A DNA stretch of 64,000 nt from an archaeon. GTDB lineage: Archaea > Nanobdellota > Nanobdellia > Pacearchaeales > JAPDKA01. This document shows positions 22,311 through 61,100 of this stretch, piece by piece (position 1 is the first letter of the stretch; each line of letters opens with the position of its first letter). The position numbers were made by a program, and so were the translations under genes. Below the pieces are notes generated by a model, which saw only the letters and a list, made by a program, of their open reading frames with translations, did not search any database and was not told where the DNA came from. The stretch is taken from NCBI GenBank assembly GCA_029258825.1, contig JAPDKA010000003.1:66065-130064 (forward strand). Direction: 5' to 3'.

Positions 22311-23306
22311 TTACAACTTTAGAAATCTGAAAAATTTTTTTGTTTTCCCTTTCTTTTTGGCTTTTTCTTTACTTTTCCTTTGTTTTTGCTTTGATTTTTG
22401 TTTTTTCTTTTGTTTTTTTGTTTTTGATAATTTTTTGCCTGCTTTGTTTTGCTTGCTTTTCTTTTTCTTTGTCTTTGCCTTTACTGTCTTTACTTTCTTT
22501 ACTTTCGCTTTTCTTGTCTTTACTTTCTTTGCTTTTGTCTTTTTCGCTTTCTTTGCTTGCTTCTCTACTTTCAATTTTTTCTTAACTTTTACTTTTTCTC
22601 CTTTTATCTTTTGTTTTTCTTTTTTCTCTTTTGCTTTAACTTTTGGCTTAACTTCATATTGCTCAAGCAATGATTTGGCTTTCTCAATAATTTGCTCGTG
22701 TTTAGCTATTTCATGTTGCAATTTTTTTATTTCTGTTTCATTAGAGACTGGCTGCAACAACTCACCACAATCAGGACAAAAGAAATCATGCAAAAGCGCT
22801 GTTTCTTCTGTCATCGTTACACATTTATTAGGACAAGCATAATAAGTCTTTGTTTGTTTACTTTTTAATTCGTGTTGTAATCTAAACAATTGTTTATTTT
22901 CTTCAGCAATTAAAAATTCAAAGCAGTTTTTCATTTCAAGTGTCCAATAATAAATGTACCAACCTTTTCGCTTGTCTTTTTTACGTGTGTAACTTACTAA
23001 ACCCCTATCATGAAGCTTATATAACATATTTCTAACCTGATTTACTGTAATGTTAAGTTTTTTTGCAATATCGAACTCACTAATATTTTGTTTGTTGTAC
23101 AGCAAATCGACAATTTGCTTACTGTATTTATCTAACAAATAAGAAACAGTATAATAAAGAAGTTGTTTTTCTTTTTCCATTTCTGCTTTAGATTTTTTCA
23201 TATTAGAAATTGTTTTTTTAGCCCCCTTTTTAGTTTGATTTTTCTGTTTATTTTGTTTTTTGCTTTGCTTTTTGCTTTTCTTTTTTGTTTTTTTCAATTT
23301 AACCAT
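22311..23306 (-). CDS. tfe: transcription factor E (TFE, TFIIE-alpha homolog) with long lysine-rich N- and C-terminal extensions
   Basis: Winged helix (DIAKKLNITVNQVRNMLYKLHDRGLVSYTRKKDKRKGWYIYYW) followed by a zinc ribbon (CPNKC...CPDCG). The remainder is poly-Lys low complexity. Confidence 0.7.
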   Translation of the reverse strand: MVKLKKTKKKSKKQSKKQNKQKNQTKKGAKKTISNMKKSKAEMEKEKQLLYYTVSYLLDKYSKQIVDLLYNKQNISEFDIAKKLNITVNQVRNMLYKLHDRGLVSYTRKKDKRKGWYIYYWTLEMKNCFEFLIAEENKQLFRLQHELKSKQTKTYYACPNKCVTMTEETALLHDFFCPDCGELLQPVSNETEIKKLQHEIAKHEQIIEKAKSLLEQYEVKPKVKAKEKKEKQKIKGEKVKVKKKLKVEKQAKKAKKTKAKKVKTRKAKVKKVKTVKAKTKKKKSKQNKAGKKLSKTKKQKKKQKSKQKQRKSKEKAKKKGKTKKFFRFLKL

Positions 23307-23476: not shown

Positions 23477-23986
23477 ATGGCACTTTTTAAAAAGAAGAAA
23501 AAAGAGGTATCACTTCCTGAACCGCCAATACCTCCTGCAACACCTACAACACCACAAATACAACAAATCGATATAGAAAAATTGAGAACGTTGAAGCTAC
23601 CTGAAGTGCCTTCAATGCCAGAGATGCCAGAGCAACCAGCTCCAGTAAAACCAGAAGTGAAAGATCTAAGTGGACTAAGTTTGCCAGAACCAGAAGTCAC
23701 ACCAGAAAAACAATCAGTAGAAACTACAACAGAAGTCATGCCTACAAGTGAAGAAAAACCAACAGTAAAAGGGCCTATATTTGTGAAGATAGATAGATAC
23801 AAAGAAGCATTAGAGACTATCGAAGGTATAAACAAAAAGCTTGATGAAATAAACAAAGCAATACAAAAGGTAAAAGAAGTAAAGCAGAAGGAGATGGATG
23901 ACATAAGCAAATGGGAAAAAGAAGTTGAAGAAATGAAAAAAAAGCTAAGCAATGTAGAGAAGATTTTGTTTTCAAAACTAGAATAA
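23477..23986 (+). CDS. hypothetical protein, Pro-rich N-terminus and coiled-coil C-terminus
   Basis: The ATG is preceded by AGAGGT. Repetitive P-E-P segments are followed by a helical region. No family recognised. Confidence 0.45.
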   Translation: MALFKKKKKEVSLPEPPIPPATPTTPQIQQIDIEKLRTLKLPEVPSMPEMPEQPAPVKPEVKDLSGLSLPEPEVTPEKQSVETTTEVMPTSEEKPTVKGPIFVKIDRYKEALETIEGINKKLDEINKAIQKVKEVKQKEMDDISKWEKEVEEMKKKLSNVEKILFSKLE

Positions 23987-24022: not shown

Positions 24023-24439
24023 ATGAAATTCGAAGAGGCGATTCATGTTAAAATTGATATAGATGAAGCAATGAATATAAGAAGGCAAATTCTAGAAGCA
24101 ATGATGTCTAGCATTAATAGTTTGGAAGTAATTGATGAACTAAAACAAAATACTAAAGAAGAGAAAAAACAATACAGTGAAGTTAAGCAGGCAACTAAAG
24201 AAGCAAAAATGATGGTTGCTGAACTTAACGAAATAATGCCAAAACCAAGAAAAACAGGAAAAACAAGAGCGAAAAAAGTAAAGGCAAAAACTAAAGCTAA
24301 AGCGAAGAAAAAAACAAAGGTAAAACAGAAAAAAGAAAAAACAAAAGCAGAAACAAAGCCGATAGCAATAAGCAAAAAAAGAATGAAATTAAAGGCTGAA
24401 CTAGAAGAAATAAGACGAAAACTGGAAATGCTTGGTTAA
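24023..24439 (+). CDS. hypothetical coiled-coil protein with a Lys-rich tail
   Basis: ORF. No family recognised. Confidence 0.4.
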   Translation: MKFEEAIHVKIDIDEAMNIRRQILEAMMSSINSLEVIDELKQNTKEEKKQYSEVKQATKEAKMMVAELNEIMPKPRKTGKTRAKKVKAKTKAKAKKKTKVKQKKEKTKAETKPIAISKKRMKLKAELEEIRRKLEMLG

Positions 24440-24459: not shown

Positions 24460-25521
24460 TTATTTTTCTGTTTTTTGCACGTCAATATTAAGCCAAGGAT
24501 AAAACATAAACCTCCAGTCTTGCCGCATTAAACAAATAGTATCTGCAAAACACTTTATTGCTTTCACATATGCTTTTTGCTTGTTGTAAGCATACAGTGC
24601 TGAATCAACAGAGTGATTAAAGTTATAAAGCGAAAGATAGCAAGCAACCATTCCAATAGCGTCATGCAAGCTAAAAATATCAAGACCATCGCTATTAACA
24701 TCGCAAAGATCAAGTAAACCTGAATTATAAAGCATTAAAATCGTGCTCGGCAGAAACTGAGCAGGGGTTATTGCACCAGCAAAACTGCAGTTGCAAAAAG
24801 GATTGTTAATTATGCCTTGTTCAAACAAGTTAAACAATGCATCCAGTTGTTTTATTGCAAATTGCTGCTTTCCAGCAAGATATAGCGTGACTAATGTATT
24901 AAACAATTTTTGCTTTCCGCAGTAATTGCCAAAGCATGATTCTAAAGCGAGAATTGCTGTTATAATCTCGATAGGTTTATGTTGCATATCTAATGAAAAT
25001 AAATTCACAGCATTAATTAAATCTTTCTCATAAGTGTTGATAAAATTTAATGCTTTGTTAAACATTTTTGGCGTATAAAAACCGAGCTCTGGTTTTAAGT
25101 AATAATCTTCGCTAATTTTATCGATTTTGTTGTAATGCTTCAATGTTTCTCTTAATTTTGCCACATCATAAATTTGAAAGTCATCGCTTGCAAACAATTT
25201 TTCTGCTAACCCTCCATAACGCGATGTCAAATAAAGCTTTAACTTAGCAAGATCATCAAGCTGTTTTCTTTGATGTTTACAGCCTTGAGCAACTTGTTCT
25301 AGTTTACGCTGGGTAATTTGAGCAGTTTGTTCAGTTACTTGTTGCTCAATCTGACATTGAGCTCGACTTGCTCTGCATTGGTTTTCATAATGGCAAGGAA
25401 AAAGAAAAGGCAAGATAAGTGCAAAATTTAAAGCATTAAACCGTGTCATGCTGTAATTAAAGCAAAGAAATATAAAAAGGTTATTGAAAAATAAAGGAGT
25501 TAACAAATTATAGACATTCAC
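24460..25521 (-). CDS. family-3 (MltB/SLT_2-like) lytic transglycosylase-like protein with an N-terminal hydrophobic segment
   Basis: ILALESCFGNYCG matches the catalytic-Glu ES motif. AGAITPAQFLPSTILMLYNSG matches the GA.GpaQFmPsT motif of MltB-type lytic transglycosylases. The N-terminal hydrophobic segment could be a signal peptide or anchor. Confidence 0.6.
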   Translation of the reverse strand: MNVYNLLTPLFFNNLFIFLCFNYSMTRFNALNFALILPFLFPCHYENQCRASRAQCQIEQQVTEQTAQITQRKLEQVAQGCKHQRKQLDDLAKLKLYLTSRYGGLAEKLFASDDFQIYDVAKLRETLKHYNKIDKISEDYYLKPELGFYTPKMFNKALNFINTYEKDLINAVNLFSLDMQHKPIEIITAILALESCFGNYCGKQKLFNTLVTLYLAGKQQFAIKQLDALFNLFEQGIINNPFCNCSFAGAITPAQFLPSTILMLYNSGLLDLCDVNSDGLDIFSLHDAIGMVACYLSLYNFNHSVDSALYAYNKQKAYVKAIKCFADTICLMRQDWRFMFYPWLNIDVQKTEK

Positions 25522-25803
25522 AAAGGTTTTTTATTCTATTTTTTTGTAAAAGTAAACCAGGCTTGCTGAAACACTTTTACAGATAAAAGAAAAATTTAAA
25601 AACATTATCGTCGAGCCGACCCTAGAAGATTTCAGAAGCTTTAAACCGAAAGATTTAAGTTTTTAAAAATATATGTTACATACATACTATACTCATTAAA
25701 AAGAAGAATTAAATATGCTATTCAAAGATAAACATATGCTTCATTCAATTGTATTTCATCGAGCTAATATTAAATCTAATATTAAATTAAATTTATCAGA
25801 TTA

Positions 25804-26151
25804 ATGCATAAGATGAAAATAGCTGTAAGTTCGATAGGAAAAAATCTTGAAAGCCAAATTAGTAATGTATTCGGGAGATGCCCGTATTTTATTATTGCTG
25901 AAATTGAAAACAAAAGAATTGTAAAAACTAAAACAATTAAAAACACAAGTGCTAATCAAATGGGCGGAGCAGGAATCTCTGCTGCTCAAATAATTGCAGA
26001 AGAAGGTGTAAAAGTTGTAATAACAGGAAATATTGGACCAAAGGCTTCTTCTGTTTTGAAACAATTTGATATTGAAGTTTATAGAGGAAGCGGGTTAGTA
26101 AAAGAGGTATTACAAAAATTTATTGAAGGAAAACTTGAAAGAATTCAATAA
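25804..26151 (+). CDS. NifX/NifB-like (dinitrogenase FeMo-cofactor biosynthesis domain, PF02579-like) protein
   Basis: MKIAVSS...FGRCPYFIIAEIEN...GAGISAAQIIAEEGVKVVITGNIGPKASSVL is the typical NifX_NifB fold pattern. The true start may be the third Met of the ORF (MKIAVSS), 9 nt into it at about 25813. Confidence 0.7.
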   Translation: MHKMKIAVSSIGKNLESQISNVFGRCPYFIIAEIENKRIVKTKTIKNTSANQMGGAGISAAQIIAEEGVKVVITGNIGPKASSVLKQFDIEVYRGSGLVKEVLQKFIEGKLERIQ

Positions 26152-26177
26152 AAGATAATAAAAATTTAAAATAAAAA

Positions 26178-26585
26178 ATGGAAGTAAAGATAGATAAAAA
26201 TAAGTGTATTGGTTGTGGAATCTGTGTTAACATATGTCCAGAAGGTATAGAAATAAGAAACGGAAAGGCTTCTATAAAAGATGAAAATGTGGATTGTTTA
26301 ATACAAGCTGCGAATTCATGCCCTAAACATGCTATTATTTTAGAAGCGAATAAACAACAATCAGAAAGTTTAGAAATCCCGCAGGGTTTTACAAGAATGG
26401 GAGTGGGCCGCAGAATTCATAGTAGAGGGCAAGGAAGGAGAAGAAGAATGGGTGGTTTTGCAGCTGGCCCTGAAGGTTATTGTGTATGCACAAAATGTGG
26501 ATATAAAATTTTACATCAGCGAGGAATTCCCTGCCACCAGCAGAAATGCCCTAAGTGCGGCTCTCCAATGATAAGAGCTAATTAA
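26178..26585 (+). CDS. 4Fe-4S ferredoxin domain fused to a DUF5320-like C-terminal domain
   Basis: N-terminal CIGCGICVNICP ... C..NSCP (a 2x[4Fe-4S] ferredoxin). C-terminal GRRIHSRGQGRRRRMGG ... CVCTKCGYKILHQRGIPCHQQKCPKCGSPM matches the Cys-rich DUF5320 variant. Confidence 0.65.
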   Translation: MEVKIDKNKCIGCGICVNICPEGIEIRNGKASIKDENVDCLIQAANSCPKHAIILEANKQQSESLEIPQGFTRMGVGRRIHSRGQGRRRRMGGFAAGPEGYCVCTKCGYKILHQRGIPCHQQKCPKCGSPMIRAN

Positions 26586-26589
26586 AATA

Positions 26590-26952
26590 TTGAAAATAAT
26601 AAAAGTGAAAATAGCAATTCCCACAGAAAATAAAAAAGGATTAAACGATAAAGTAACAGAACATTTTGGTAGATGCAATACTTTTACTTTTCTTAACGAG
26701 AAAGGAGAACTCATTGAAATAATTGATAATAAAAGTCAGCTAGGCTTATTGCCTCCACAACTTTTGAAAAAGCATGGAGCAAACGTTTTGTTATGCAAAG
26801 CTCTCGGTTTAAAAGCTTTTGATTTATGCAAACAACTTGGCATAGAGGTCTATATTTCAAAAGCAAAAACAGTTAAAGAAATTTTTGAAGAATGGAAAAA
26901 TAAAAAAATCAAAAAAGCTAATTTTGAAAATATTTGCAAACATGGAAAATGA
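26590..26952 (+). CDS. NifX/NifB-like (dinitrogenase FeMo-cofactor biosynthesis domain) protein, second copy
   Basis: KIAIPTENKKGLNDKVTEHFGRCNTFTF...LLKKHGANVLLCKALGLKAF. It overlaps the next gene by ATGA. Confidence 0.7.
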   Translation: MKIIKVKIAIPTENKKGLNDKVTEHFGRCNTFTFLNEKGELIEIIDNKSQLGLLPPQLLKKHGANVLLCKALGLKAFDLCKQLGIEVYISKAKTVKEIFEEWKNKKIKKANFENICKHGK

Positions 26953-27806
26953 AAATTACTTTTATGATTGTTTTTATCGTTATTTTTGTAATTATTTTAA
27001 TATTATTAGCATTAATTTATAAATTTATATTCAATATAAATACAATGAAGGAGAATAAAGAAAATATAACAAAAGATTTAGAAAAAAATTTTCTTTCTAA
27101 TATAACAATTTCTAACATAACAATTATTGATGTTTATGATAATGTTGAATTTAATCCAAAATTCAAAACAGGTTTCGGTTTTGCGTGTGTTGTAAAATTA
27201 AAGAATAATACAATTCTTTTTGATACCGGAAGCGATTCAAAAATACTATTAACAAATTTAGAAATAGCAGGAATCAAACCAGAGGAAATAGGGATTATTG
27301 TTTTATCACACATTCATGGAGACCATACTGGCGGTCTTTTAGGGTTTTTGAGGAGAAATTCCAATGTTAAGGTTTACGTTCCTGTTTCTTTTCCATCTTC
27401 ATTTAAAAAGGAAATAAAAGCAACAGGAGCAAAAGTAGTAAATGTTACTAATTTTATGAAAATAACAGAAGGAATTTATTCGACAGGAGAGCTTGGAACA
27501 TGGATTAAAGAACAATCTTTAGTAATTAATTCTGATAAAGGATTAATTATTATAACTGGTTGCGCCCATCCTGGTATTGTTAACATAGTAAAGAAAGTAA
27601 AGGAATTAACAAATAAAAATATTTATATTGTTATGGGAGGATTTCATCATCCTCCAATTGAAATAGTAAAAGAATTTAAAAAACTTGATGTGAAAAAAGT
27701 AGCACCGAGCCATTGCACAGGAGATGAAGCAATAAATGCTTTCAAAAAAGAATATCAAGAAGATTTTATAAAATCTGGGGTTGGAAAGATTATTGTAATA
27801 AAATAA
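26949..27806 (+). CDS. MBL-fold metallo-hydrolase (COG1237-like) with an N-terminal TM helix
   Basis: LSHIHGDHTGGL (HxHxDH) and a downstream GGFHH motif. The start is chosen at the ATG that overlaps the upstream TGA as ATGA. Confidence 0.7.
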   Translation: MKITFMIVFIVIFVIILILLALIYKFIFNINTMKENKENITKDLEKNFLSNITISNITIIDVYDNVEFNPKFKTGFGFACVVKLKNNTILFDTGSDSKILLTNLEIAGIKPEEIGIIVLSHIHGDHTGGLLGFLRRNSNVKVYVPVSFPSSFKKEIKATGAKVVNVTNFMKITEGIYSTGELGTWIKEQSLVINSDKGLIIITGCAHPGIVNIVKKVKELTNKNIYIVMGGFHHPPIEIVKEFKKLDVKKVAPSHCTGDEAINAFKKEYQEDFIKSGVGKIIVIK

Positions 27807-27835
27807 AACAAAAAATAAAAATCGACAGCAATTAA

Positions 27836-28672
27836 ATGCTAAAGGAAGTGCTTTTTAAAACACTTTTTGAAACACTGAAAATAGTAGGAATAGTAACAAT
27901 TTTAATGATCTTTATTGAGTATTTACAAATAAAGTTCAAGAAAAAAATTGAAAAGTACATCACAAAAAACAAGAAAAATCAAATAATAGGTTCTTCTTTG
28001 CTTGGCGCAATTCCTGGTTGCATAGATGCGTTTTTTATTGTTTCTTTATATTCTCACGGCTTGGTAGGCTTTGGTGCTTTAACAGCAGTTATGCTCTCAA
28101 CAGCAGGTGATGAAGCTTTCGTCATGCTTGCCATGGTTCCAAAGACCGCTTTTTTAATTTTTGCATCATGTGTCATTCTAGGAATTCTTGGTGGTTTTCT
28201 TGCTGATGCTATAGTAAAGAAAACAAAATTAAAAAGGTCGAAACCTTGTATCATAAAAATTCATAAAAAAGAAAAACTTGGACATTTTTTTAAAGAACAT
28301 GTATACAACCATATTATCAAAAAGCATGCATTAAAACTTTTCTTATGGATTTTTTTTACTTTGTTAATAGTTGAATTGTTAATGGAGAAGTTTGATCTCG
28401 CTAGTTTTCTGCCAAAAAATGTTTTGTTAATGATTTTAATTGCTGCATTGGTTGGGATAATTCCTGAATCAGGACCTCATCTGATATTTCTTACTTTGTT
28501 TGCTAAAGGCCTAATTCCTTTTTCAGTTTTGTTGACTTCTTCATTGGTGCAAGACGGTCATGGCCTACTTCCTTTACTTTCCTATTCTGTTAAGGATGCA
28601 ATTAAAGTTAAAATTTTTAATGTTGTTTTTGGACTCATTGTTGGAATAGCTTTATTTTTAGTTGGAATTTAA
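27836..28672 (+). CDS. putative permease (two-repeat polytopic membrane protein), function unknown
   Basis: About 8 TM segments with GAIPGC and IPESGPH motifs in the two halves. It co-operonic with the ATPases. The family assignment is uncertain. Confidence 0.45.
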   Translation: MLKEVLFKTLFETLKIVGIVTILMIFIEYLQIKFKKKIEKYITKNKKNQIIGSSLLGAIPGCIDAFFIVSLYSHGLVGFGALTAVMLSTAGDEAFVMLAMVPKTAFLIFASCVILGILGGFLADAIVKKTKLKRSKPCIIKIHKKEKLGHFFKEHVYNHIIKKHALKLFLWIFFTLLIVELLMEKFDLASFLPKNVLLMILIAALVGIIPESGPHLIFLTLFAKGLIPFSVLLTSSLVQDGHGLLPLLSYSVKDAIKVKIFNVVFGLIVGIALFLVGI

Positions 28673-28673
28673 A

Positions 28674-29504
28674 ATGAGAATAGCAATTACTGGCGGAAAA
28701 GGAGGAACAGGAAAATCAACAATAGCAACAGCTTTGGCTTACAAATTAGCAAAAACAAAAAAAGTCTTACTTCTTGATTTAGATGTTGATTGCCCAAACG
28801 ATGATTTGATTCTTGGAATTAAAACAAAAAAAGTAAAAGATGTTGAAAGCATGATTCCAAAATTTGATTATAAAAAATGTAAAAAATGTGGTTTGTGTTC
28901 TAAAATCTGTAAAGAACATGCAATCGTTTTTGTTAAAGGAAATTTTCCCTTTGTAATTCCTGAGCAATGCATTGGTTGCAAAGCTTGTAAGATTGTATGC
29001 CCTTTCCATGCTATAACAGAAGAAAAACAAAAAATAGGTGAAATTTTTATCGGCAAAAAAGGAAACCTCACTTTAATAGGCGGAAAAATGAAACCTGTGA
29101 TTGAAGAATCAAGTTTGGTTGTAAATGCGGTAAAAAAATTTTCACAGGAATATGAGAAAAAGTATGATTATGTAATTGTTGATACTGCGGCAGGAACACA
29201 TTGTCCTGTTATTTCTGCCTTACTTAATTGTGATATCGCTTTTGCTGTAACAGAGCCAACACCTCTTGGCCAGCATGATTTAGAATTAATTTTAAAATTA
29301 ACAAAAAAATTGAAAATTAAATCTTATGTTATTTTAAACAGATCTGACATTGCTAATAAAAAAATGATTGAGAACATTGCAAGAAAATACAAAACAAAAA
29401 TTATTGCAGAAATCCCTTACAGTAAGGAAATTGAAAAAAATTATTCAGTTGGAAAACCAATTGAGCATGAAGCTATAGATCAGATTATAAACATGGTAAA
29501 ATGA
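28674..29504 (+). CDS. MinD/ParA-superfamily P-loop ATPase with an inserted 4Fe-4S ferredoxin domain (COG1149-like)
   Basis: Walker A ITGGKGGTGKST, two CxxCxxCxxxCP ferredoxin motifs (CKKCGLCSKICKEHA; CIGCKACKIVCP), then the ParA core (VIVDTAAGTHCP). Confidence 0.8.
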   Translation: MRIAITGGKGGTGKSTIATALAYKLAKTKKVLLLDLDVDCPNDDLILGIKTKKVKDVESMIPKFDYKKCKKCGLCSKICKEHAIVFVKGNFPFVIPEQCIGCKACKIVCPFHAITEEKQKIGEIFIGKKGNLTLIGGKMKPVIEESSLVVNAVKKFSQEYEKKYDYVIVDTAAGTHCPVISALLNCDIAFAVTEPTPLGQHDLELILKLTKKLKIKSYVILNRSDIANKKMIENIARKYKTKIIAEIPYSKEIEKNYSVGKPIEHEAIDQIINMVK

Positions 29505-30412
29505 AAACAATAACAATTTTATCTGGTAAAGGAGGTGTTGGAAAAAGTTCCATTACTGCTTCTTTAGCTGTGTTGTTAGCAAGAAAATATAAAATTGTTA
29601 CAGCCGATTGTGATGTTGATACACCAAATCTTGGTTTGTTGTTTGGCATTAAAAATTTTAAAAATTTGAAGAAAGTATCAACAAACTATAAAGCATTTGT
29701 AAATAAAAAGGTTAAAAAATGCCCTAATGTAAAAAAATTATCTGATGTATGCACTTTTTTTGCCATTTCTTGGAATGAAAAAATGAATATACCAATAATA
29801 AACAGATTTTTGTGCGAAGGTTGTGGTGCGTGTAAATTATTATGTCCGGAAGGAATAGAATTGAAGAGAGTGAAAAATGCTGTTATTGGCCAAACAAAAA
29901 CAAAATACGGTTTTTATATTGTTTTTGGCCAGCTAAAAGTTGGGGAATCAGGAAGTGGGAACATTGTTGAAATTATTAAAGAAAGAACAAGAAAAATCGC
30001 TGAAAATGTTAAAGCAGATTTCATCATTATTGATTCGTCTGCAGGAATTGGTTGTCCTGTTATTGCCTCAATCAGAGATTCTGATTTTGTTATCGCAGTT
30101 ACAGAACCAACTCCTTCTGCTTTACGTGACTTAAAGAGAGCACTAAAGGTTGTTGAACATTTCAAAATACCTTACGGGGTTATTATTAATAAATATGATC
30201 TTAACAAAAAATTCACAAAAAAAATAGAAAATTTTGCAAATAACCATGGAATTCCAATATTTGGAAAATTACCTTATGACAAATCATTTGTTGAATCAAT
30301 AGTGAATCTTATGCCAGTTGTTGTTTATGATAAAAGATTTGAAAGATTATTTTTAAGTATTTTAAATAATGTCAAAAATAATCTCGATAAAATTTACAAT
30401 AAAAATTTATGA
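29501..30412 (+). CDS. MinD/ParA-superfamily P-loop ATPase with an inserted 4Fe-4S ferredoxin domain (COG1149-like), paralog 2
   Basis: Walker A LSGKGGVGKSS, CEGCGACKLLCP, and IIIDSSAGIGCPV. The start overlaps the upstream stop as ATGA. Confidence 0.8.
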   Translation: MKTITILSGKGGVGKSSITASLAVLLARKYKIVTADCDVDTPNLGLLFGIKNFKNLKKVSTNYKAFVNKKVKKCPNVKKLSDVCTFFAISWNEKMNIPIINRFLCEGCGACKLLCPEGIELKRVKNAVIGQTKTKYGFYIVFGQLKVGESGSGNIVEIIKERTRKIAENVKADFIIIDSSAGIGCPVIASIRDSDFVIAVTEPTPSALRDLKRALKVVEHFKIPYGVIINKYDLNKKFTKKIENFANNHGIPIFGKLPYDKSFVESIVNLMPVVVYDKRFERLFLSILNNVKNNLDKIYNKNL

Positions 30413-30451
30413 AAATTTTTCTAATTTGAGTAGAAACAGCTATTTTAATAG

Positions 30452-32344
30452 CTACCTTAACCGCACTACTTCTAGGTTGCGCGGCACAGTAGTTTCTATC
30501 TTGAAAAATTTATGAAGTGTCGATGCTAAATCAAGACTTTTACTTTGTTCACCATGGTTAATAATTATTCGTCGTGGTGTAGGTTTGAGATTGTTAACAA
30601 AATTAATAAGCTGATTTCTATCGCTGTGTCCGCTTAAACCTTCAATGCTAACAACTTCTAACTTTATAGGAACTTTTTCTTCTTTACCTTCAACCACAAA
30701 CCTTGCTTCTTTCAAACCTTCTTGCACTTGTCGACCAAGACTATTTACACCCTGATAGCTAACAAATATGATCATGTTTTTCTTATTGTCGGCAAGTTCT
30801 CTAAAGTACTCTACACTTGCGCCTCCAACAAGCATACCGCTTGTCGCAAGAATAATGCATGGACCACTATTAATAACTTCCTCTCGCTCGGTTGGAGAAC
30901 CAACACGCTTAAACGTTTCACTTAAGAAAGGATTTTCACCAGCTATAATTTGCTTTCTCACATTAACACCAAGGAACTCTGGATAAGCTGTATGGATAGT
31001 TGTTACATCCCAGACCATACCATCTATGTACACCGGTACGTTCTGCAATAAGCCCTGCTTTATTGCATCATCAATGATAAGCATTACTTCTTGACTGCGG
31101 CCGACTCCTAAAACAGGAATAAGCACTTTACCTTTTCTTTTGATAGTCCTGGCTATATTTTCAATGAGTGCTTTCTCACTCTGTTTTCTTGGAGGCATAA
31201 CATCGTTTCTACCGCCATAAGTTGATTCCATGATTAATGTTTCTACTCTCGCATATTTTGTGCGAGGAGGATCAAACAATCTTGTTTTGCTGTATTTAAA
31301 ATCACCTGTATAAAGTACATTATGCAAGCCATTACCAATATTAAGGTGTACTAAACTGCTACCAAGCGCGTGACCTGCATTAAAAAAGGTTAATCTAACA
31401 TCTGGCGCTATATCAGTAACTTCACCATAGTTCAATGTTATAGTGTGCTTTACCATTTCCTTTATATCGCTAACAGAAAAAATTGGTTGTGCTGCTTGTT
31501 TGTAGCTAACACCAATATAATCTAATGCAAGTAATGCTGCTATATCTCTTGTTGGAGCCGTCATGTATACAGGCCCCCTATAACCAAGCTTAAACAAGTA
31601 TGGCACTAAACCGGAATGATCGAGATGTGCGTGACTAATTATTACAGCATCAATATCTTTTATGTCAAATTCAGGAACATTCAAATATGGAAACTTTTCA
31701 CTGTTAGTTGCAGCAACATCAATGCCACAATCAATAATAATTTTACTTTCTGGCGTTTGCAACAATAAGCAACTTCTGCCAACTTGTCTGGCACCGCCAA
31801 GAAAACTAACACGTATCCATTCTTGTTTTTTTTCAGCTGTCCAACCTTTATAAATTGCTTTTCCAACTTTATTAAGGAATTTTTTTCTGTATTCGCTGCT
31901 GGCGTATAAAACATGAATGATAGCTTCAGTAATGCGGCTCCTTACAGCAGGGCTTCGTTTGACTTGTGGCGTCCAGCATGTTTGTTTTTTTATTTCTTTA
32001 AGTATGCTCGCATTTTCACCAATAGCCATAGAAGGGTTTTTCACATTCAACACAACAATACTGCGTTGCTCATCAAATTCAATGTTATCAAGACCTGCTT
32101 CTTTAGGTAGTAACATTTTTATAATTTTTTCAGTTTCCTCTTTATTCACAAGAATTTCTGGCACAGCTCTAAGTTCTATCCGTTTTTTTATTTCATTAAC
32201 TATTTGCTTTATTATTGGCTCACCTTCAACAAGAAATTTCTTATCATGAGTATAAAGAATAATGTTTGCACCTTCAAAATATGCAGAATCGATTAGTTTT
32301 GCATCTGGCAATTTACTTAAGATTGTTTTTATGATGTCTGCCAT
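30452..32344 (-). CDS. aCPSF1/FttA (KH-domain beta-CASP metallo-beta-lactamase ribonuclease, archaeal transcription termination factor)
   Basis: N-terminal KH domains, an MBL motif (ISHAHLDHSG) and a beta-CASP region. About 630 aa. The start is taken at MADIIK. It lies downstream of psmB, as is commonly seen. Confidence 0.85.
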   Translation of the reverse strand: MADIIKTILSKLPDAKLIDSAYFEGANIILYTHDKKFLVEGEPIIKQIVNEIKKRIELRAVPEILVNKEETEKIIKMLLPKEAGLDNIEFDEQRSIVVLNVKNPSMAIGENASILKEIKKQTCWTPQVKRSPAVRSRITEAIIHVLYASSEYRKKFLNKVGKAIYKGWTAEKKQEWIRVSFLGGARQVGRSCLLLQTPESKIIIDCGIDVAATNSEKFPYLNVPEFDIKDIDAVIISHAHLDHSGLVPYLFKLGYRGPVYMTAPTRDIAALLALDYIGVSYKQAAQPIFSVSDIKEMVKHTITLNYGEVTDIAPDVRLTFFNAGHALGSSLVHLNIGNGLHNVLYTGDFKYSKTRLFDPPRTKYARVETLIMESTYGGRNDVMPPRKQSEKALIENIARTIKRKGKVLIPVLGVGRSQEVMLIIDDAIKQGLLQNVPVYIDGMVWDVTTIHTAYPEFLGVNVRKQIIAGENPFLSETFKRVGSPTEREEVINSGPCIILATSGMLVGGASVEYFRELADNKKNMIIFVSYQGVNSLGRQVQEGLKEARFVVEGKEEKVPIKLEVVSIEGLSGHSDRNQLINFVNNLKPTPRRIIINHGEQSKSLDLASTLHKFFKIETTVPRNLEVVRLR

Positions 32345-32482
32345 TTTAACAAAAACAAATTTCAAATTTAACTTCAAACTAAATTTAATTAAATTTCAAT
32401 TAAACCCATCCAAGCTATTCAATTAACATTACCAAATTTCAAATTTGCCCGGGTTTGCCAGGTAAAATAAAAGAGATATACT

Positions 32483-56800: not shown

Positions 56801-58195
56801 ATGATTAGGTTTGTTAATAGAAATAGAGAGTTGAACATTTTAAATAGAGATTGGAATAATTTGAATAATGGATTTATAGTTATTTATGGTAGAAGAAGGA
56901 TCGGAAAGACAAAGCTTATAGAGGAATTTGTAAAAGACAAAAAAGGAATAAGTTATACTGCCGAAGATACAAGCAAGAAAATTCAGATAAGAGAATTCAA
57001 AGATGCTATAGCAAGTTTTTTGGATGATGATTTTTTGAAAAACCAAGAGATAGTAAGTTGGTCTTCTTTGTTTGAGTATTTACAAAAAGTGCTAGATAGA
57101 AATAAGCGTTTTTATATATGGATAGACGAATTTTCTTATTTGTTAAAAAATGATAAATCATTACCAAGCATATTACAAAAATTCATTGATAAATTCTTGA
57201 GGAACTCTAAAATTTTCTTTATTGTAAGTGGCTCATTATTTGGTTTAATGAAAGAAAAGGTTTTATCAAATTCTTCCCCCCTTTACGGAAGGAGAACAAG
57301 AGACATATTACTTAGAGAACTAAATTTCGAACATGCAATCAAATTCGTTAATTTTAATTTTGAAGACAAATTAAAAACATTCCTTACAATTGGAGGAATT
57401 CCAGAATATCTTTTAGTAGCTTCAAAATTCAAAACTTATGAAGAATTTATAAAACAAGAATTTTTTACTCATGAAGGATATTTCTACAGAGAGCCTTATT
57501 TCCTACTATCCCAAGAATTTAAAGAGATAAGGATCTATTTTTCTATACTTAATGCGATTGCATATGGTAATACAAAACCAAGCGAGATAGCAAATTTTGT
57601 TGGGATAAAAACAAGGGAAATATACCCTTATCTTGAATTACTTAATGCTTACGGATTCGTTACAAGAGAGAAACATCTATTCAAAGAAAAGCTAGGAATC
57701 TATTTAATCAAAGATTGTTTTTTTGATTTCTGGTTTAATTTTGTACATAAGAATAGAGAGCTTATAGAAAGAGGAGCTTATGAATTAAATAAAAAAAAGA
57801 TAAACACATATCTTGGAAAAAGATTCGAGATTTTCATTAAAGATAACTTCCATTACTTTTTCAAGGATTATACAAAAATCGGCAGATGGTGGCACAAAGA
57901 CAGAGAAATTGATATTGTAGCTATCAACGAAAAAAACAAGCAAATTCTTGCTTGTGAATGCAAATGGCAAAGCAGGGTTAATGCTGAAAAGATAGCTAAA
58001 GAACTAAACGAAAAGCTTGGCTATGTTGATTGGCAAAAAGATAAAAGAAAAGAAAGTTTTGCTATTTTTGCAAAAAGCTTTAGCAAACGCATTAAGGAAT
58101 GGCAAGGCAAGCCTGTTTATTGCTTTGATTTGAAGGATTTAGAGAAAGCAATGAAACACAAAACAAAACACAAAAAATTTTTAAAGAGTAAATGA
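56801..58195 (+). CDS. archaeal AAA-type ATPase fused to a DUF234 domain
   Basis: Walker A IYGRRRIGKTKL, Walker B WIDEFSYL, then a C-terminal DUF234-like region. This is a common archaeal architecture. Confidence 0.6.
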   Translation: MIRFVNRNRELNILNRDWNNLNNGFIVIYGRRRIGKTKLIEEFVKDKKGISYTAEDTSKKIQIREFKDAIASFLDDDFLKNQEIVSWSSLFEYLQKVLDRNKRFYIWIDEFSYLLKNDKSLPSILQKFIDKFLRNSKIFFIVSGSLFGLMKEKVLSNSSPLYGRRTRDILLRELNFEHAIKFVNFNFEDKLKTFLTIGGIPEYLLVASKFKTYEEFIKQEFFTHEGYFYREPYFLLSQEFKEIRIYFSILNAIAYGNTKPSEIANFVGIKTREIYPYLELLNAYGFVTREKHLFKEKLGIYLIKDCFFDFWFNFVHKNRELIERGAYELNKKKINTYLGKRFEIFIKDNFHYFFKDYTKIGRWWHKDREIDIVAINEKNKQILACECKWQSRVNAEKIAKELNEKLGYVDWQKDKRKESFAIFAKSFSKRIKEWQGKPVYCFDLKDLEKAMKHKTKHKKFLKSK

Positions 58196-61100
58196 GTTGG
58201 GTGAGTATGAAGAGGGGTGTAAAATATTTAATTATGTTATTTTTTTTCATGTTATTATTATTTATGAATATCGATCACAACGTTAAAGCGGCAACACAAA
58301 AAAAAGAGCTATTAATATTATTTACGTTGAAATTAAATAGTGATGGGAGTACACACCCACATACTACAAACTTGAAAGGATGGGTAATAGACTTTTCCGA
58401 TCAACAACAACCAACAAAGAGATTAAAGAAAGAAGGGGAAAGCAATAATATTTTTGTTGAGAATGTACCAATAGAGTTTGAAACAGGAGTATGGGATCAC
58501 AATTTTGGATATGGTGTGGGAGCTACTTTGGGTGATTACGATTGTGATAAAAAACCTGATTTGATAATAGCATATGGTACAGGTTGGAACAATAACAAAC
58601 CTCAATGGATAAAATTATTAATATTTGAAAATATAAAACTAGTAGAACGTGGCGGTGTGGTAACATACTATGAACTTCAATATGATAGAGAAAAAGAAAT
58701 TGATTTAACAAGAGATTATGATGGAATAAAATATTTACTTGGTGATCATGTTGGAGGAATAGGAATCACATTTGTAGGATGTAGAGGCGACATTAGTAAA
58801 TTTAGAATAGTAGTATTCGATCCTGAAAAAGACTGTAAAGCTAGAGCAGTCGATGTAGAGTTATGTAACTGTAAATACTATGGAAGTTCAAGTATAAGTT
58901 GGTGGAGTGGTTGGCCAAGCGGAAGTATAGCAAATGAAAGAGGAAGTGGAGTCGGAGTAATTAATAAAACTTATTTTATGATATATACTACTTACTTTAA
59001 GGAAACTGAAAATCTTCTTGATATATTCGAATGTGATGAAAGTTCTGAGAAGTGTACAAAAAAAGAGGGAAAAGATCTTAATTGGAATGTAGCTTCTGGC
59101 ATAGGGGCCACATCAAAATCAAAAGATACGGTAATTATAGCAATTACTTCCTATAAACCAAATGATGATGTTGCAAAAATAAAATTGATGAAGCTAGACA
59201 CTACAAAGTTACACGAATTTGGTGTTTTCAATTCACCAAGATTAAGTGAAGGATTATCGACATTCGGCATTGGTTTAGCACGGGCCGTTATAAACCCTTT
59301 TAGTGGGAAACTTATAGAAGACTGCTCAAATGGCTTAGATGATGATTTCGATGGAAAGATTGATGATAATGATAAAGATTGTGATGAAAGTCAGCATTGT
59401 GGTGATGGAATAGACAATGATGATGATGGTAAGAAAGATTGCGCCGATCCAGACTGCTGGGGAAAAACAGGTCCAAATGGAGTGAGATGTTGTGGTTCAG
59501 ATGATGATTGTGGTAATAAGTGTAAAAATTGTAAGTATTATAAGGGTGAATGTAATAATAACATATGTACATGGGAGGAACATATAGGTACTGACGAGGA
59601 TAATGATGAACACGATGTAGAGTGTGGATATCAATGTGAATGTAATGACAGTGATGATACTATTCATAAAGACGCAACTGAAATCTGCACTGACGAAATA
59701 GACAATGATTGTGATGACCTAATCGACTGCGATGATCCTGATTGTACAAACAACCCTGCGTGTGCTCCTCAAACAGAAACAGACTGTTCAAACGAAATTG
59801 ATGATGATGGAGATGGTTTTATTGATTGTGAGGATCCTGACTGTGCTGGACGTGAAGGTCCAAATGGGAAAATTTGTTGTCAAGAAAGCTGGGACTGTCC
59901 TGGATGGCCAACACAATTTTGTAGTAAACCTACCCACGCATGCACATATTGTAGTAAATCTGGTGAATGTAGCATAGAAAAATGCGATTATAAAATATTC
60001 GGATGTTGTATTTCTCAAGGAAAAGTATGCAAAGATTCTACATGCCAAACAGCATGTCAAGTAGTAAAAAATCGCAAAATTAATTTAAAAGAGTTGGAAG
60101 ATATTCCACAGTGCTTAGTACTTCGAGGAAACGTAACTCTAGATTGTCAAAACCAGATATTAGACGGAAGTCATACTAATTTTCCTGCTGCGATAGTTAT
60201 TTCTAACGAAAATGGAGAGGACGGTCCGATAATAATTAAGAACTGTAAACTACAAAATTGGGTATACGGAATTTTAGCATATTATTCTGCAAACATTATA
60301 TTAGAGAATGTAGAAATAAATAACTCTAAACGACAGTGCGATACAGGAGGTATAGGAGCAGCATTCTACGAAAGTAAAGATATAACAATAATCAATAGCA
60401 AGATTGTTAATAACAGTTGGGATGGTATTGGAATCTACGCTAGACGATATAATGTAAGTAACATAACAATACGTGGTAGCACCATTTACTACAACGGCTG
60501 GCAATCAACAAACGGCGGAGCTGGTATTTCGTTCTATACCCCAAGCAACAACAAGTTAAGTGATATAACGGTAAAAAACAGCCATATTTACAACAATTCA
60601 TTTTCAGGTATATACTTGAAAAATGTTGAGAATGTCAAAATAATAGGCAACAACATACATGATAATAACATAGGTATTAACGTTAATGGAAATAGTAGTG
60701 GTATAACGATAATAGACAACATAATACACAGAAACGTAAATAATACAAACAATTTTCCAGAGAATATTAAAAAAGATGAATATGGTTTAAATGAAGCTGG
60801 ACAAGGAATAAGGCTTAAAACAATTGTTGGAGAAAAAATACGAAATGTAACAATAAAAAATAACGAGATTTACGATAATGATGCAGAAGGTATTGATAGT
60901 TACTGGAGGGATAGTGGAAACTTATTTGATATTCAAATACTACAAAACACATTAAAAGACAATAGACATGGCATTTCTCTGAAGAATGTTGACAGATTCG
61001 TAATAAGAAATAAATTAACTCAAACTAATGTTTTTAAAAATGGAGAGGAACCATTATGGGAGTGGGAGTGCGTCCCAATTGAAAACCATGACTCTGCGAT

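Follow-up and report, generated by a model that had tools for sequence, protein, structure and literature searches.

The gene, its start codon and its N-terminal extension

The window, by which we mean the whole 64,000-nucleotide stretch of DNA that was analyzed, contains on its minus strand the open reading frame that a preliminary description of this DNA had placed at positions 24460 to 25521; in the ORF listing it has 353 amino acids from a GTG start. The start at 25521 given there was not borne out, and this GTG was rejected in favor of an ATG at 25449, which is the start in the public gene calls (P0001, an identical product of 329 amino acids) and is also favored by upstream conservation. 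The 35 nt preceding this ATG are nearly identical at L001, a locus carrying a 77%-identical ortholog, and the sequence farther upstream differs. Because this conservation begins only approximately 35 nt before the ATG, the 24 codons between the GTG and the ATG (25450 to 25521, minus strand) are most likely promoter and not protein, and this promoter or leader stretch probably goes untranslated. The ATG at 25449 is probably the true start, which gives a coding sequence for the lytic transglycosylase homolog of 24460 to 25449 (minus strand), stop codon included.

The upstream stretch conserved with L001 contains a TATA-like box, TTTTTATA, at -29 to -22 from the ATG (25471 to 25478, minus strand), which is invariant in the window, L002, and L001 and has flanks that diverge farther upstream. 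Archaeal TATA elements lie at approximately -26, a spacing that this box fits, and its distance from the ATG suggests that the transcript would be leaderless or near-leaderless and of the archaeal type. The 8-bp inverted repeat noted earlier upstream of the gene is present and in fact has 9-bp arms of the TGTAAAGT type (25545 to 25553 and 25573 to 25581, with a 19-nt loop; 25545 to 25581 overall), approximately 100 to 130 nt upstream of ATG 25449. Its significance did not hold up, since it is absent from L001 and such a repeat arises in approximately 20% of shuffled versions of the 24%-GC intergenic region; across the 64-kb window, 99 such 8-bp repeats were counted. We therefore rejected it as a regulatory element and judged it to lie outside the system.

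The first 20 residues, MTRFNALNFALILPFLFPCH (25390 to 25449, minus strand), form a putative export signal or membrane anchor. The presence of an N-terminal hydrophobic segment, claimed in the preliminary description, was supported by hydropathy, but its sequence had to be revised with the start codon, the true segment being MTRFNALNFALILPFLFPC. An Arg occupies position 3, and a hydrophobic core of 12 to 14 residues comes after it. The Kyte-Doolittle value is 2.31 over an 11-residue window but only 1.24 over 19 residues, so that the segment falls short of the length of a standard transmembrane helix; the signal or anchor call was made by eye and hydropathy only. The segment is kept in P0002. 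By inspection, neither LFPC in the window protein nor FSFHC in the ortholog satisfies the canonical lipobox [LVI][ASTVI][GAS]C. Residues 27 to 78 (25216 to 25371, minus strand), which are rich in Gln and Lys, were modeled by AlphaFold2 as a single long alpha-helix, here called the stalk, with a pLDDT of 78 to 97 from residue 31 onward. Similar N-terminal extensions occur in the archaeal proteins P0004, P0012, P0098, and P0273; the bacterial proteins P0007 and P0008 have none. The enzyme is probably exported on this helical stalk and would act on bacterial walls.

Fold and catalytic residues of a family-3 lytic transglycosylase homolog

The Pfam family SLT_2 (PF13406), to which the preliminary description had pointed, matched the protein at 66.3 bits, where the cut-off is 24.3, with an E value of 3.5e-18 that lies far outside chance; the match covers profile positions 57 to 204 of 292, and no other Pfam family was matched at E<=1. 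The AlphaFold2 model had a pLDDT of 90.4. Its top eight Foldseek matches in the PDB were all Slt35, SltB1, SltB2, or SltB3 (probability 1.0, TM-score 0.55 to 0.64), and all remaining PDB matches had E>0.3. By model and matches together, the protein has the lysozyme-like core plus alpha domain fold that is found in Slt35/MltB of E. coli and SltB1 of P. aeruginosa, although the identity in structural alignments with Slt35 and SltB1 was just 16 to 19%. This catalytic region of the family-3 lytic transglycosylase fold comprises approximately residues 80 to 305 (24535 to 25212, minus strand) and consists of alpha and core domains without the beta domain. In Slt35 we take the beta domain to be residues 275 to 334, approximately, inserted between core helices. 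A profile of the clade aligned to Slt35 with an E value of 1e-42 while skipping 60 residues that correspond to the Slt35 beta domain (chain position 233 of Slt35 is followed directly by 294 in the alignment), and in the multiple alignment this gap was common to the window protein and all short relatives.

The counterparts of the active-site residues were each located. The motif ILALESCFG, which holds the family's (I/V)E(S/T) signature, lies at 24928 to 24954, and both pairwise and profile HMMER alignments paired the Glu of ILALES with Slt35 Glu162. This predicted catalytic acid is Glu170 (Glu194 in the 353-amino-acid ORF; codon at 24940 to 24942, minus strand), and its column was invariant across 131 relatives. 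In the second motif, GAITPAQFLPST at 24742 to 24777, SFAGA..Q..PS pairs with Slt35 SFAGAMGYGQFMPSS, to which the longer segment S222-FAGAITPAQFLPST (24742 to 24786, minus strand) was aligned. Within it, S222 (24784 to 24786) is the nearly invariant counterpart of Slt35 Ser216, and Q231 is the invariant counterpart of Gln225. A C-terminal YN..(K/S).YV motif was also found, in which the clade profile segment ifsYNpsksYVkav aligned to Slt35 ITRYNHSTHYAMAV; its Y288 and N289 (24583 to 24588, minus strand) are nearly invariant, and N289 corresponds to Slt35 Asn339. Both signature motifs quoted in the preliminary description are thus present and align to family-3 positions in the profile and PDB alignments. 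That description had named misaligned motifs or clustering with a nonglycosidase family as outcomes that would count against its reading; instead, the motifs align and only family-3 lytic transglycosylase structures match significantly.

Other features depart from the characterized enzymes. An EF-hand-like loop, D250-VNSDGL-D257 (24679 to 24702, minus strand), occupies the place of the Slt35 Ca2+ site, which we take to be Asp237 to Asp248, but is one residue shorter: in the HMMER alignment of DVNSDGLD with Slt35 DFSGDGHINLWD there is a one-residue deletion, and the acidic residue at loop position 12 is missing. The family consensus at this loop is D...DG..D. One of the two Arg residues of Slt35 that bind the peptide stem aligns with Gly. 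With no beta domain and a shorter Ca2+ loop, the protein may differ in substrate range from characterized enzymes. The cut-offs for MltB equivalogs were far from reached (TIGR02282, 58.2 bits versus 281.4; NF008029, 45 versus 449; MltB_2, 49.7 versus 248), and the N terminus, with its short hydrophobic segment and 50-residue helix in a host archaeon without murein, differs from the lipobox-bearing one of MltB, an outer-membrane lipoprotein. By profile, fold, and residues, the ORF therefore encodes a homolog of the family-3 lytic transglycosylases (Pfam SLT_2, CAZy GH103), and the part of the earlier claim that would make it an MltB ortholog fails on the scores and the missing beta domain.

Archaeal setting, relatives and origin of the gene

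The aEF-2 encoded in the window was 77 to 81% identical to proteins named Candidatus Pacearchaeota and 66 to 69% identical to proteins of Woesearchaeota and Nanoarchaeota, and on these identities the host is a Pacearchaeota-like DPANN archaeon. The archaeal context claimed earlier was independently confirmed by genes for TFIIE-alpha, aEF-2, proteasome, aCPSF1, Nre, and TrmB. The same archaeal housekeeping neighborhood was found in three independent assemblies, on contigs of 326 kb and 68 kb and on the 2.7-kb contig of a divergent relative; for the P0001 cluster the neighborhood was read from P0003, a member at 99.7% identity. The ortholog group is rare, occurring in only 3 assemblies among 1.84 billion representative proteins and forming just two clusters at 90% identity. 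The composition of the gene (GC 0.34, GC3 0.28) matches that of neighboring genes. Compared with its ortholog, the gene had a dN/dS of 0.17 at a dS of 0.62, and by region the values were 0.11 (dS 0.63) for the catalytic domain and 0.23 for the stalk, which indicates that the gene is intact and selectively maintained. No PHROG matches were obtained for the gene and four neighboring genes, and no integrase or transposase was found in the Pfam annotation of the neighboring genes; with housekeeping genes as flanks and no PHROG matches, a provirus or mobile-element origin was rejected.

Outside its own ortholog group, the protein was no more than 35% identical to anything, and its nearest relatives (25 to 35%), which likewise have an N-terminal anchor and then a helical stalk, were mostly on other archaeal contigs. 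Four such contigs carried archaeal genes beside the relative: aEF-1beta and PAN with P0004, L15e with P0098, aIF-2 with P0012, and aCPSF1 with P0105. The protein is one of a loose group of SLT_2 proteins, stalked and lacking the beta domain, that occur on several archaeal contigs of DPANN type and are only 25 to 35% identical to one another, versus approximately 65% for housekeeping proteins such as aCPSF1. A scan of species-representative genomes in a genome collection with a 4-sequence alignment, which did not retrieve the window's own genome, returned bacterial loci only, at 25 to 36% identity. The labeled relatives in those genomes were all bacterial, as is, overwhelmingly, the SLT_2 family. 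A word-indexed search with the single sequence found the protein itself and one ortholog and nothing more, and a word-indexed profile search found few sequences, the sole organism name among them being Deltaproteobacteria bacterium; neither word-indexed search pinned down the donor lineage.

Among the close bacterial parallels are P0007 and P0008, uncharacterized short SLT_2 proteins of approximately 250 to 290 amino acids with an equally beta-domain-less core, which are 31 to 33% identical to the window protein over the catalytic region. P0007 also shares with it an extra insertion before the EF-hand-like loop. In both bacterial proteins, however, an ordinary signal peptide leads directly into the domain, and of the three only the window protein has the long stalk. 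The contexts of P0007 and P0008 are diderm (RND/OEP, T2SS ATPase, SecDF, RecG), and bacterial proteins of this type presumably remodel their own wall.

A phylogeny, proposed earlier as a route to the donor and built here by neighbor joining, paired the two orthologs in 100% of bootstrap replicates; P0004 and P0007 came out as their sister in approximately 39%, which does not fix the sister group. The archaeal P0004 and the bacterial P0007 were themselves grouped in 181 of 200 replicates, a pairing that hints at repeated exchange between archaea and bacteria. The closeness of L068 and L021 in a first tree was rejected as an artefact of fragmentary ORF extraction, and both were left out of the final tree. 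Horizontal acquisition, as the preliminary description had supposed, is supported insofar as the labeled relatives point to a bacterial origin of the family, and the event can be refined as an old one. Because GC and GC3 are host-like, dN/dS is 0.17 at a dS of 0.62, and the nearest relatives lie on archaeal contigs, the evidence points to an old bacterial acquisition that became established in DPANN archaea and not to a recent one-off transfer.

Proposed role, alternatives and significance

Earlier work read the lytic transglycosylase domains of Pacearchaeota and Woesearchaeota as tools against bacterial walls (PMC8204110, PMC9723730). The large DPANN proteins concerned (Castelle 2021, fam00969; Vigneron et al. 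2022, GH23) are like the window protein in their DPANN host, predicted chemistry, and logic of bacterial-wall attack or attachment, but they carry GH23 (SLT, family-1-type) domains within proteins of up to approximately 3000 amino acids (PMC8204110, PMC9723730), whereas the window protein is a 329-amino-acid, single-domain GH103 with SLT_2 alone detected. It therefore shares with the fam00969/GH23 class a Pacearchaeota/Woesearchaeota host but not the placement of a GH23/SLT domain in an extracellular protein of very large size. The window encodes a single large surface protein, a 1727-amino-acid ORF, which was rejected as the giant lytic transglycosylase protein of the literature, as it has beta-helix/NosD repeats only and no lytic transglycosylase domain. 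For peptidoglycan hydrolases of archaea, killing of bacteria has been demonstrated (PMC12352652). The GH25 muramidase of A. boonei and the halobacterial M23/PG_binding_1 enzymes are likewise murein degrading, of bacterial origin, and archaeally encoded (PMC12352652), but they are hydrolases or peptidases in other hosts and carry cell-wall-binding modules, whereas the window protein would be a nonhydrolytic transglycosylase and has no such module; with one Pfam family only at E<=1, it falls outside the definition that PMC12352652 gives for archaeal peptidoglycan hydrolases. In a CAZy survey of 2012, GH103 occurred in 0 of 101 archaeal genomes, and no report of an archaeal GH103 enzyme was found in the literature searched. 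DPANN lytic transglycosylases are thus already known as GH23 in large proteins, GH103 not being the family reported.

On balance we favor the reading that the gene encodes a catalytically competent, short-form GH103 enzyme of a Pacearchaeota-like DPANN archaeon, long resident, exported, stalked, and cutting bacterial murein; we regard this as fairly probable. Against it weigh the missing beta domain and the shorter Ca2+ loop, the Gly aligned with a peptide-stem-binding Arg, the rarity of the ortholog group, and the lack of an adjacent peptidoglycan-binding domain, secretion system, or toxin gene in the Pfam annotation of the protein and its neighbors. An archaeal TATA promoter would give a leaderless mRNA, and the 329-amino-acid product would be exported by Sec through its short N-terminal signal or anchor. 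The helix of approximately 50 residues is predicted to keep the catalytic domain off the archaeal membrane. The single acid Glu170, ringed by Ser222, Gln231, and Asn289, would then cut the beta-1,4 MurNAc-GlcNAc bond of bacterial peptidoglycan and, by homology to Slt35 and SltB1, leave 1,6-anhydroMurNAc ends. Murein is not made by the archaeon itself, so the substrate must come from elsewhere, and the enzyme would likely cleave bacterial murein outside the cell, whether that of a host, of prey, or of debris. The most likely substrate would be the bacterial wall where the archaeon touches its host or prey, and we infer a bacterial partner or prey as the target.

The same chemistry could instead serve nutrition, a secreted or tethered enzyme solubilizing the peptidoglycan of dead bacteria for uptake of amino sugars and amino acids by a metabolically limited archaeon and not for attack on or attachment to a living host. 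A paper on chimney Pacearchaeota proposes dead-bacteria peptidoglycan as an amino-acid source (PMC11537232), and no secretion machinery, toxin, or adhesin was found next to the gene. An MFS transporter and other uptake genes do lie elsewhere in the window, though unlinked to the gene, but no amidase, NagZ, AnmK, or LdcA-type genes were seen in its annotated part, and a membrane-proximal stalk fits contact-dependent action better than a diffusing scavenger. We regard a nutritional role as unlikely, though by no means negligible. The nutritional and contact-dependent roles are not mutually exclusive.

Improbable, in our judgment, is that the protein was repurposed for a nonmurein glycan (chitin or chito-oligosaccharides, an archaeal surface glycan, or the pseudomurein of a methanogen host) or became a mere glycan-binding module. 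Its high divergence (<=35% identity beyond its own ortholog group), the missing beta domain, and the replaced peptide-stem-binding Arg would allow this, and the related GH23 fold includes chitinases, which appeared as weak Foldseek matches at E>=0.4. All GH103 catalytic and substrate-cleft signature residues are nevertheless kept under purifying selection, and GH103 is not known to have any nonmurein activity. The lytic transglycosylase reaction depends on a beta-1,4 bond and on MurNAc with its C6-OH free, and pseudomurein has beta-1,3-linked N-acetyltalosaminuronic acid, the C6 of which is a carboxylate. On this established chemistry, pseudomurein is implausible as a substrate. The overwhelmingly bacterial distribution of SLT_2 and the mere two 90%-identity ortholog clusters might point to bacterial contamination, mis-assembly, cargo of a mobile element, or a one-off transfer of very recent date, with no established role in the archaeon. 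This reading is effectively refuted by the archaeal neighborhood shared among the three contigs, the host-like composition, the divergence and constraint between orthologs, the conserved archaeal-type promoter, and the lack of PHROG, integrase, and transposase matches.

DPANN archaea are believed to live on other cells, and only a minority of their lineages has an identified host. A conserved, exported, murein-cleaving enzyme would be among the few genomic clues that some Pacearchaeota interact with bacteria and not archaea, an interaction that could involve living hosts, prey, or bacterial debris. The theme itself is known, and the present case enriches it without introducing a new principle. 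Compared with the giant GH23 proteins, a small, single-domain GH103 on a stalk would lend itself far more easily to expression and assay, and a practical test of the hypothesis that DPANN archaea attack bacterial walls would therefore become possible. More tentatively, and with clear doubt on our part, the stalked, beta-domain-less GH103 proteins may constitute a fast-evolving, DPANN-specific weapon or adhesion family that stems from one acquisition from diderm bacteria and diversified in an arms race. If so, this family would flag Pacearchaeota and related lineages with bacterial, not archaeal, hosts, and its presence would be a sequence marker of cross-domain episymbiosis.

Fold, catalytic residues, and architecture

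The open reading frame on the minus strand at 24460-25521 (353 aa if counted from its GTG) matched the SLT_2 profile (PF13406) at an E value of 3.5e-18 and 66.3 bits, compared to a gathering score of 24.3. A search of PDB sequences with its product, the LT protein, recovered only family-3 lytic transglycosylases (SltB3, Slt35, SltB2, and SltB1). An AlphaFold2 model computed from a 131-sequence alignment had a mean pLDDT of 90.4 and a pTM of 0.82, and its eight top PDB matches were all structures of Slt35, SltB1, SltB2, or SltB3, with a probability of 1.0 and TM-scores of 0.55 to 0.64; beyond these eight, the next matches had E values above 0.3. Because the NCBIfam MltB models were matched far under their cutoffs (58/281, 50/248, and 45/449), the protein is, as judged by profile scores, a superfamily member and not an MltB ortholog.

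The catalytic motif was correctly recognized, since the Glu of ILALES pairs with Slt35 Glu162 in the PDB sequence alignment. A profile of the LT protein and its 15 nearest relatives matched Slt35 at an E value of 1e-42, and in this alignment the catalytic Glu, the SFAGA.G..QF.PSS motif (which holds Slt35 Ser216 and Gln225), the D...DG..D loop, the DAIG.VANY helix, and the YN.S..Y motif (with Slt35 Asn339 within it) were all paired. When 23 and then 131 relatives were aligned, two residues, E170 and Q231 (numbered on the 329-aa product), proved invariant, and S222, G225, A226, P234, D263, Y288, and N289 were nearly so. The motifs thus aligned with Slt35, and the PDB matches placed the protein in no non-glycosidase family. 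These results demonstrate that the LT protein retains the family-3 fold with its catalytic constellation.

Compared to Slt35, the LT protein is missing a beta domain of approximately 60 residues, has a Ca2+-binding loop shortened by one residue and with no acid at position 12, and carries a Gly opposite one of the two peptide-stem arginines. In the model, one long helix (residues 27 to 78) precedes the catalytic region, and a stalk is predicted. The protein has 12 cysteines (3.6%). Six of these, all in the catalytic region (C172, C177, C219, C221, C249, and C270), are kept in the 77%-identical ortholog, which does not conserve those of the signal and stalk regions; disulfides may possibly form if the protein is exported. 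The final 24 residues have a dN/dS of approximately 1.2.

Gene start and upstream region

Public gene calls begin the gene at ATG 25449, giving 329 aa (P0001), rather than at the GTG at 25521 that was initially taken as the start. The 35 nt 5' of this ATG are nearly identical in the window and in L001, the locus carrying the ortholog, although L001 has a different upstream gene, and no conservation was found beyond this stretch further upstream. Within it lies a TATA-like box, TTTTTATA (25471-25478, minus strand, -29 to -22 from the ATG), which would fit an archaeal TATA box giving a leaderless transcript, and the gene is likely to be expressed in archaeal fashion. Since this conserved promoter-like DNA directly precedes the ATG, the GTG-to-ATG segment is probably not translated.

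The N-terminal hydrophobic segment noted in the preliminary description is present, but its true sequence begins at ATG 25449 and reads MTRFNALNFALILPFLFPC. In it, a basic residue precedes a hydrophobic core of 12 to 14 residues, and the Kyte-Doolittle mean over 19 residues is only 1.24. A core of this length would suffice for a signal peptide and would be short for a transmembrane helix.

The inverted repeat described upstream of the gene is real, with 9-bp arms (25545-25581), but it is missing from L001, and approximately 20% of shuffled copies of the AT-rich intergenic region contain one. It was therefore rejected as part of the LT system. Across the 64-kb window, 99 8-bp inverted repeats of comparable kind were counted versus 70 +/- 9 in first-order Markov shuffles, and perfect 9-bp repeats (loops of 3 to 25 nt) numbered 43 versus 20 +/- 6, or about twice as many. 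Terminators and operators are possible sources of this excess.

Host, neighborhood, and origin

The archaeal host was borne out by genes in the window for TFIIE-alpha, SecY, aEF-2, proteasome, aCPSF1, Nre, TrmB, Rad50/Mre11-type, and topoisomerase proteins. The aEF-2 was 77 to 81% identical to proteins named Candidatus Pacearchaeota and 66 to 69% identical to Woesearchaeota and Nanoarchaeota proteins, which points to a Pacearchaeota-like DPANN host. The LT gene neighborhood is common to three contigs (326-kb NCBI, 68-kb ENA, and 2.7-kb Logan, the last from a diverged relative), and contamination or chimerism is therefore excluded for practical purposes. The GC (0.34) and GC3 (0.28) of the LT gene equal those of neighboring genes; compared to the ortholog, it has a dN/dS of 0.17 over its full length and of 0.11 within the catalytic region (dS of approximately 0.62); a PHROG search of the gene and its neighbors gave no matches; and no integrase or transposase occurred among its Pfam-annotated neighbors. 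Together, these results show that the gene is resident in the archaeal chromosome and under purifying selection.

Between the LT gene and aCPSF1, the window carries genes (25804-30412) for Nitro_FeMo-Co-domain proteins, a ferredoxin, a metallo-beta-lactamase, ArsP_2, and two ParA/MRP-like ATPases. This block is absent from L001 (3-637), where 56 nt separate the end of aCPSF1 from the start of the LT gene, and the difference is an insertion or deletion of approximately 4.6 kb between close relatives. An SLT_2 gene lies beside or near aCPSF1 in three archaeal loci (L087, 302-3228; L001, 3-1651; and the window, 24460-32377), in convergent orientation in L087 and in tandem in L001. The SLT_2 proteins there are only about 25% identical (P0105 versus the window protein), and the proximity may be coincidental or may have been inherited from a common ancestor. 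Two small convergent genes beside the LT gene (23477-23986 and 24023-24439) encode Lys/Glu-rich coiled-coil-like proteins; both are conserved at L001, and neither is assigned to a family. The TFIIE-alpha homolog (22311-23306, minus strand) is 30% lysine, with long poly-Lys-rich tails on either side (N- and C-terminal) of its winged-helix domain. A 1,727-aa protein (58192-63375, plus strand; 5.4% Cys) with Beta_helix/NosD repeats is presumably a large surface protein and contains no lytic transglycosylase domain.

When 1.84 billion representative proteins were scanned exhaustively with HMMER, only 345 matched at an E value of 1e-3 or lower, the best outside the protein's own cluster being 35% identical (E = 5.5e-26), and the branch is long. 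Among eight close relatives, four were on archaeal contigs and two on clearly bacterial ones; P0005 and P0009 had too little surrounding DNA for assignment of a host domain. The archaeal contigs carried aEF-1beta and PAN (P0004), ribosomal protein L15e (P0098), aIF-2 together with an archaeal-type nucleoside phosphorylase (P0012), or an adjoining aCPSF1 (P0105). NCBIfam matches confirmed these contigs, with three markers above their cutoffs and the aCPSF1 (E = 1e-154) below its cutoff because its gene call was split. The bacterial contigs carried RND/OEP efflux genes and a T2SS ATPase (P0007) or SecDF, RecG, and GGDEF genes (P0008). A pattern scan of species-representative genomes found 74 loci, all bacterial and 25 to 36% identical, mainly from Desulfobaccales and other Desulfobacterota, Sulfurovum and other Campylobacterota, and Spirochaetota. 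Archaeal members are 330 to 380 aa long and combine a hydrophobic segment at the N terminus with a helical extension; bacterial short forms are 260 to 290 aa long and have a plain signal peptide.

Horizontal acquisition, as first proposed, agrees with a labelled wider family that is bacterial, but the host-like composition and the dS of approximately 0.62 from the ortholog speak against a recent event. Neighbor-joining bootstraps gave no supported sister group for the window protein and singled out no donor lineage, and archaeal P0004 paired with bacterial P0007 (loci L077, 10001-11029, and L081, 8001-8846) in 181 of 200 replicates. This pairing suggests a separate bacterium-archaeon exchange inside the subfamily, and more than one inter-domain exchange is therefore possible. 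Besides aEF-1beta and PAN, the P0004 contig carries Arf/Roadblock and a Cas10-palm protein.

Substrate and role

The LT protein would be Sec-exported or anchored, and Glu170 would cleave the MurNAc-beta-1,4-GlcNAc bond, forming 1,6-anhydroMurNAc. Since the archaeon makes no murein, the substrate is likely to be a foreign bacterial wall, and our best guess for the role is contact-dependent weakening of the wall of a bacterial host or prey; alternatively, the enzyme may instead scavenge peptidoglycan debris. Pseudomurein, also suggested initially, is an unlikely substrate, because the reaction requires the MurNAc C6 hydroxyl and a beta-1,4 bond, whereas pseudomurein contains beta-1,3-linked N-acetyltalosaminuronic acid with a carboxylate at C6 and, by established chemistry, offers neither.

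Lytic transglycosylase domains have been noted in DPANN archaea since 2013-2015 and have been described as common among Pacearchaeota and Woesearchaeota with small genomes, where they are GH23 domains belonging to giant extracellular proteins (PMC8204110, PMC9723730, PMC10936187, PMC11537232). Bacteria-killing archaeal peptidoglycan hydrolases of other enzyme classes have been demonstrated (PMC12352652), and none of the 101 archaeal genomes in a CAZy survey of 2012 had GH103 (PMC3541169). Unlike the reported DPANN proteins, the LT protein is a GH103 enzyme of a single domain and 329 aa, with a predicted stalked architecture of its own. That DPANN archaea carry murein-degrading enzymes that came from bacteria is an already known theme, to which the LT gene adds a new member, and a specialist is unlikely to be surprised by it; the gene offers a way to approach DPANN-bacteria interactions that is experimentally tractable.
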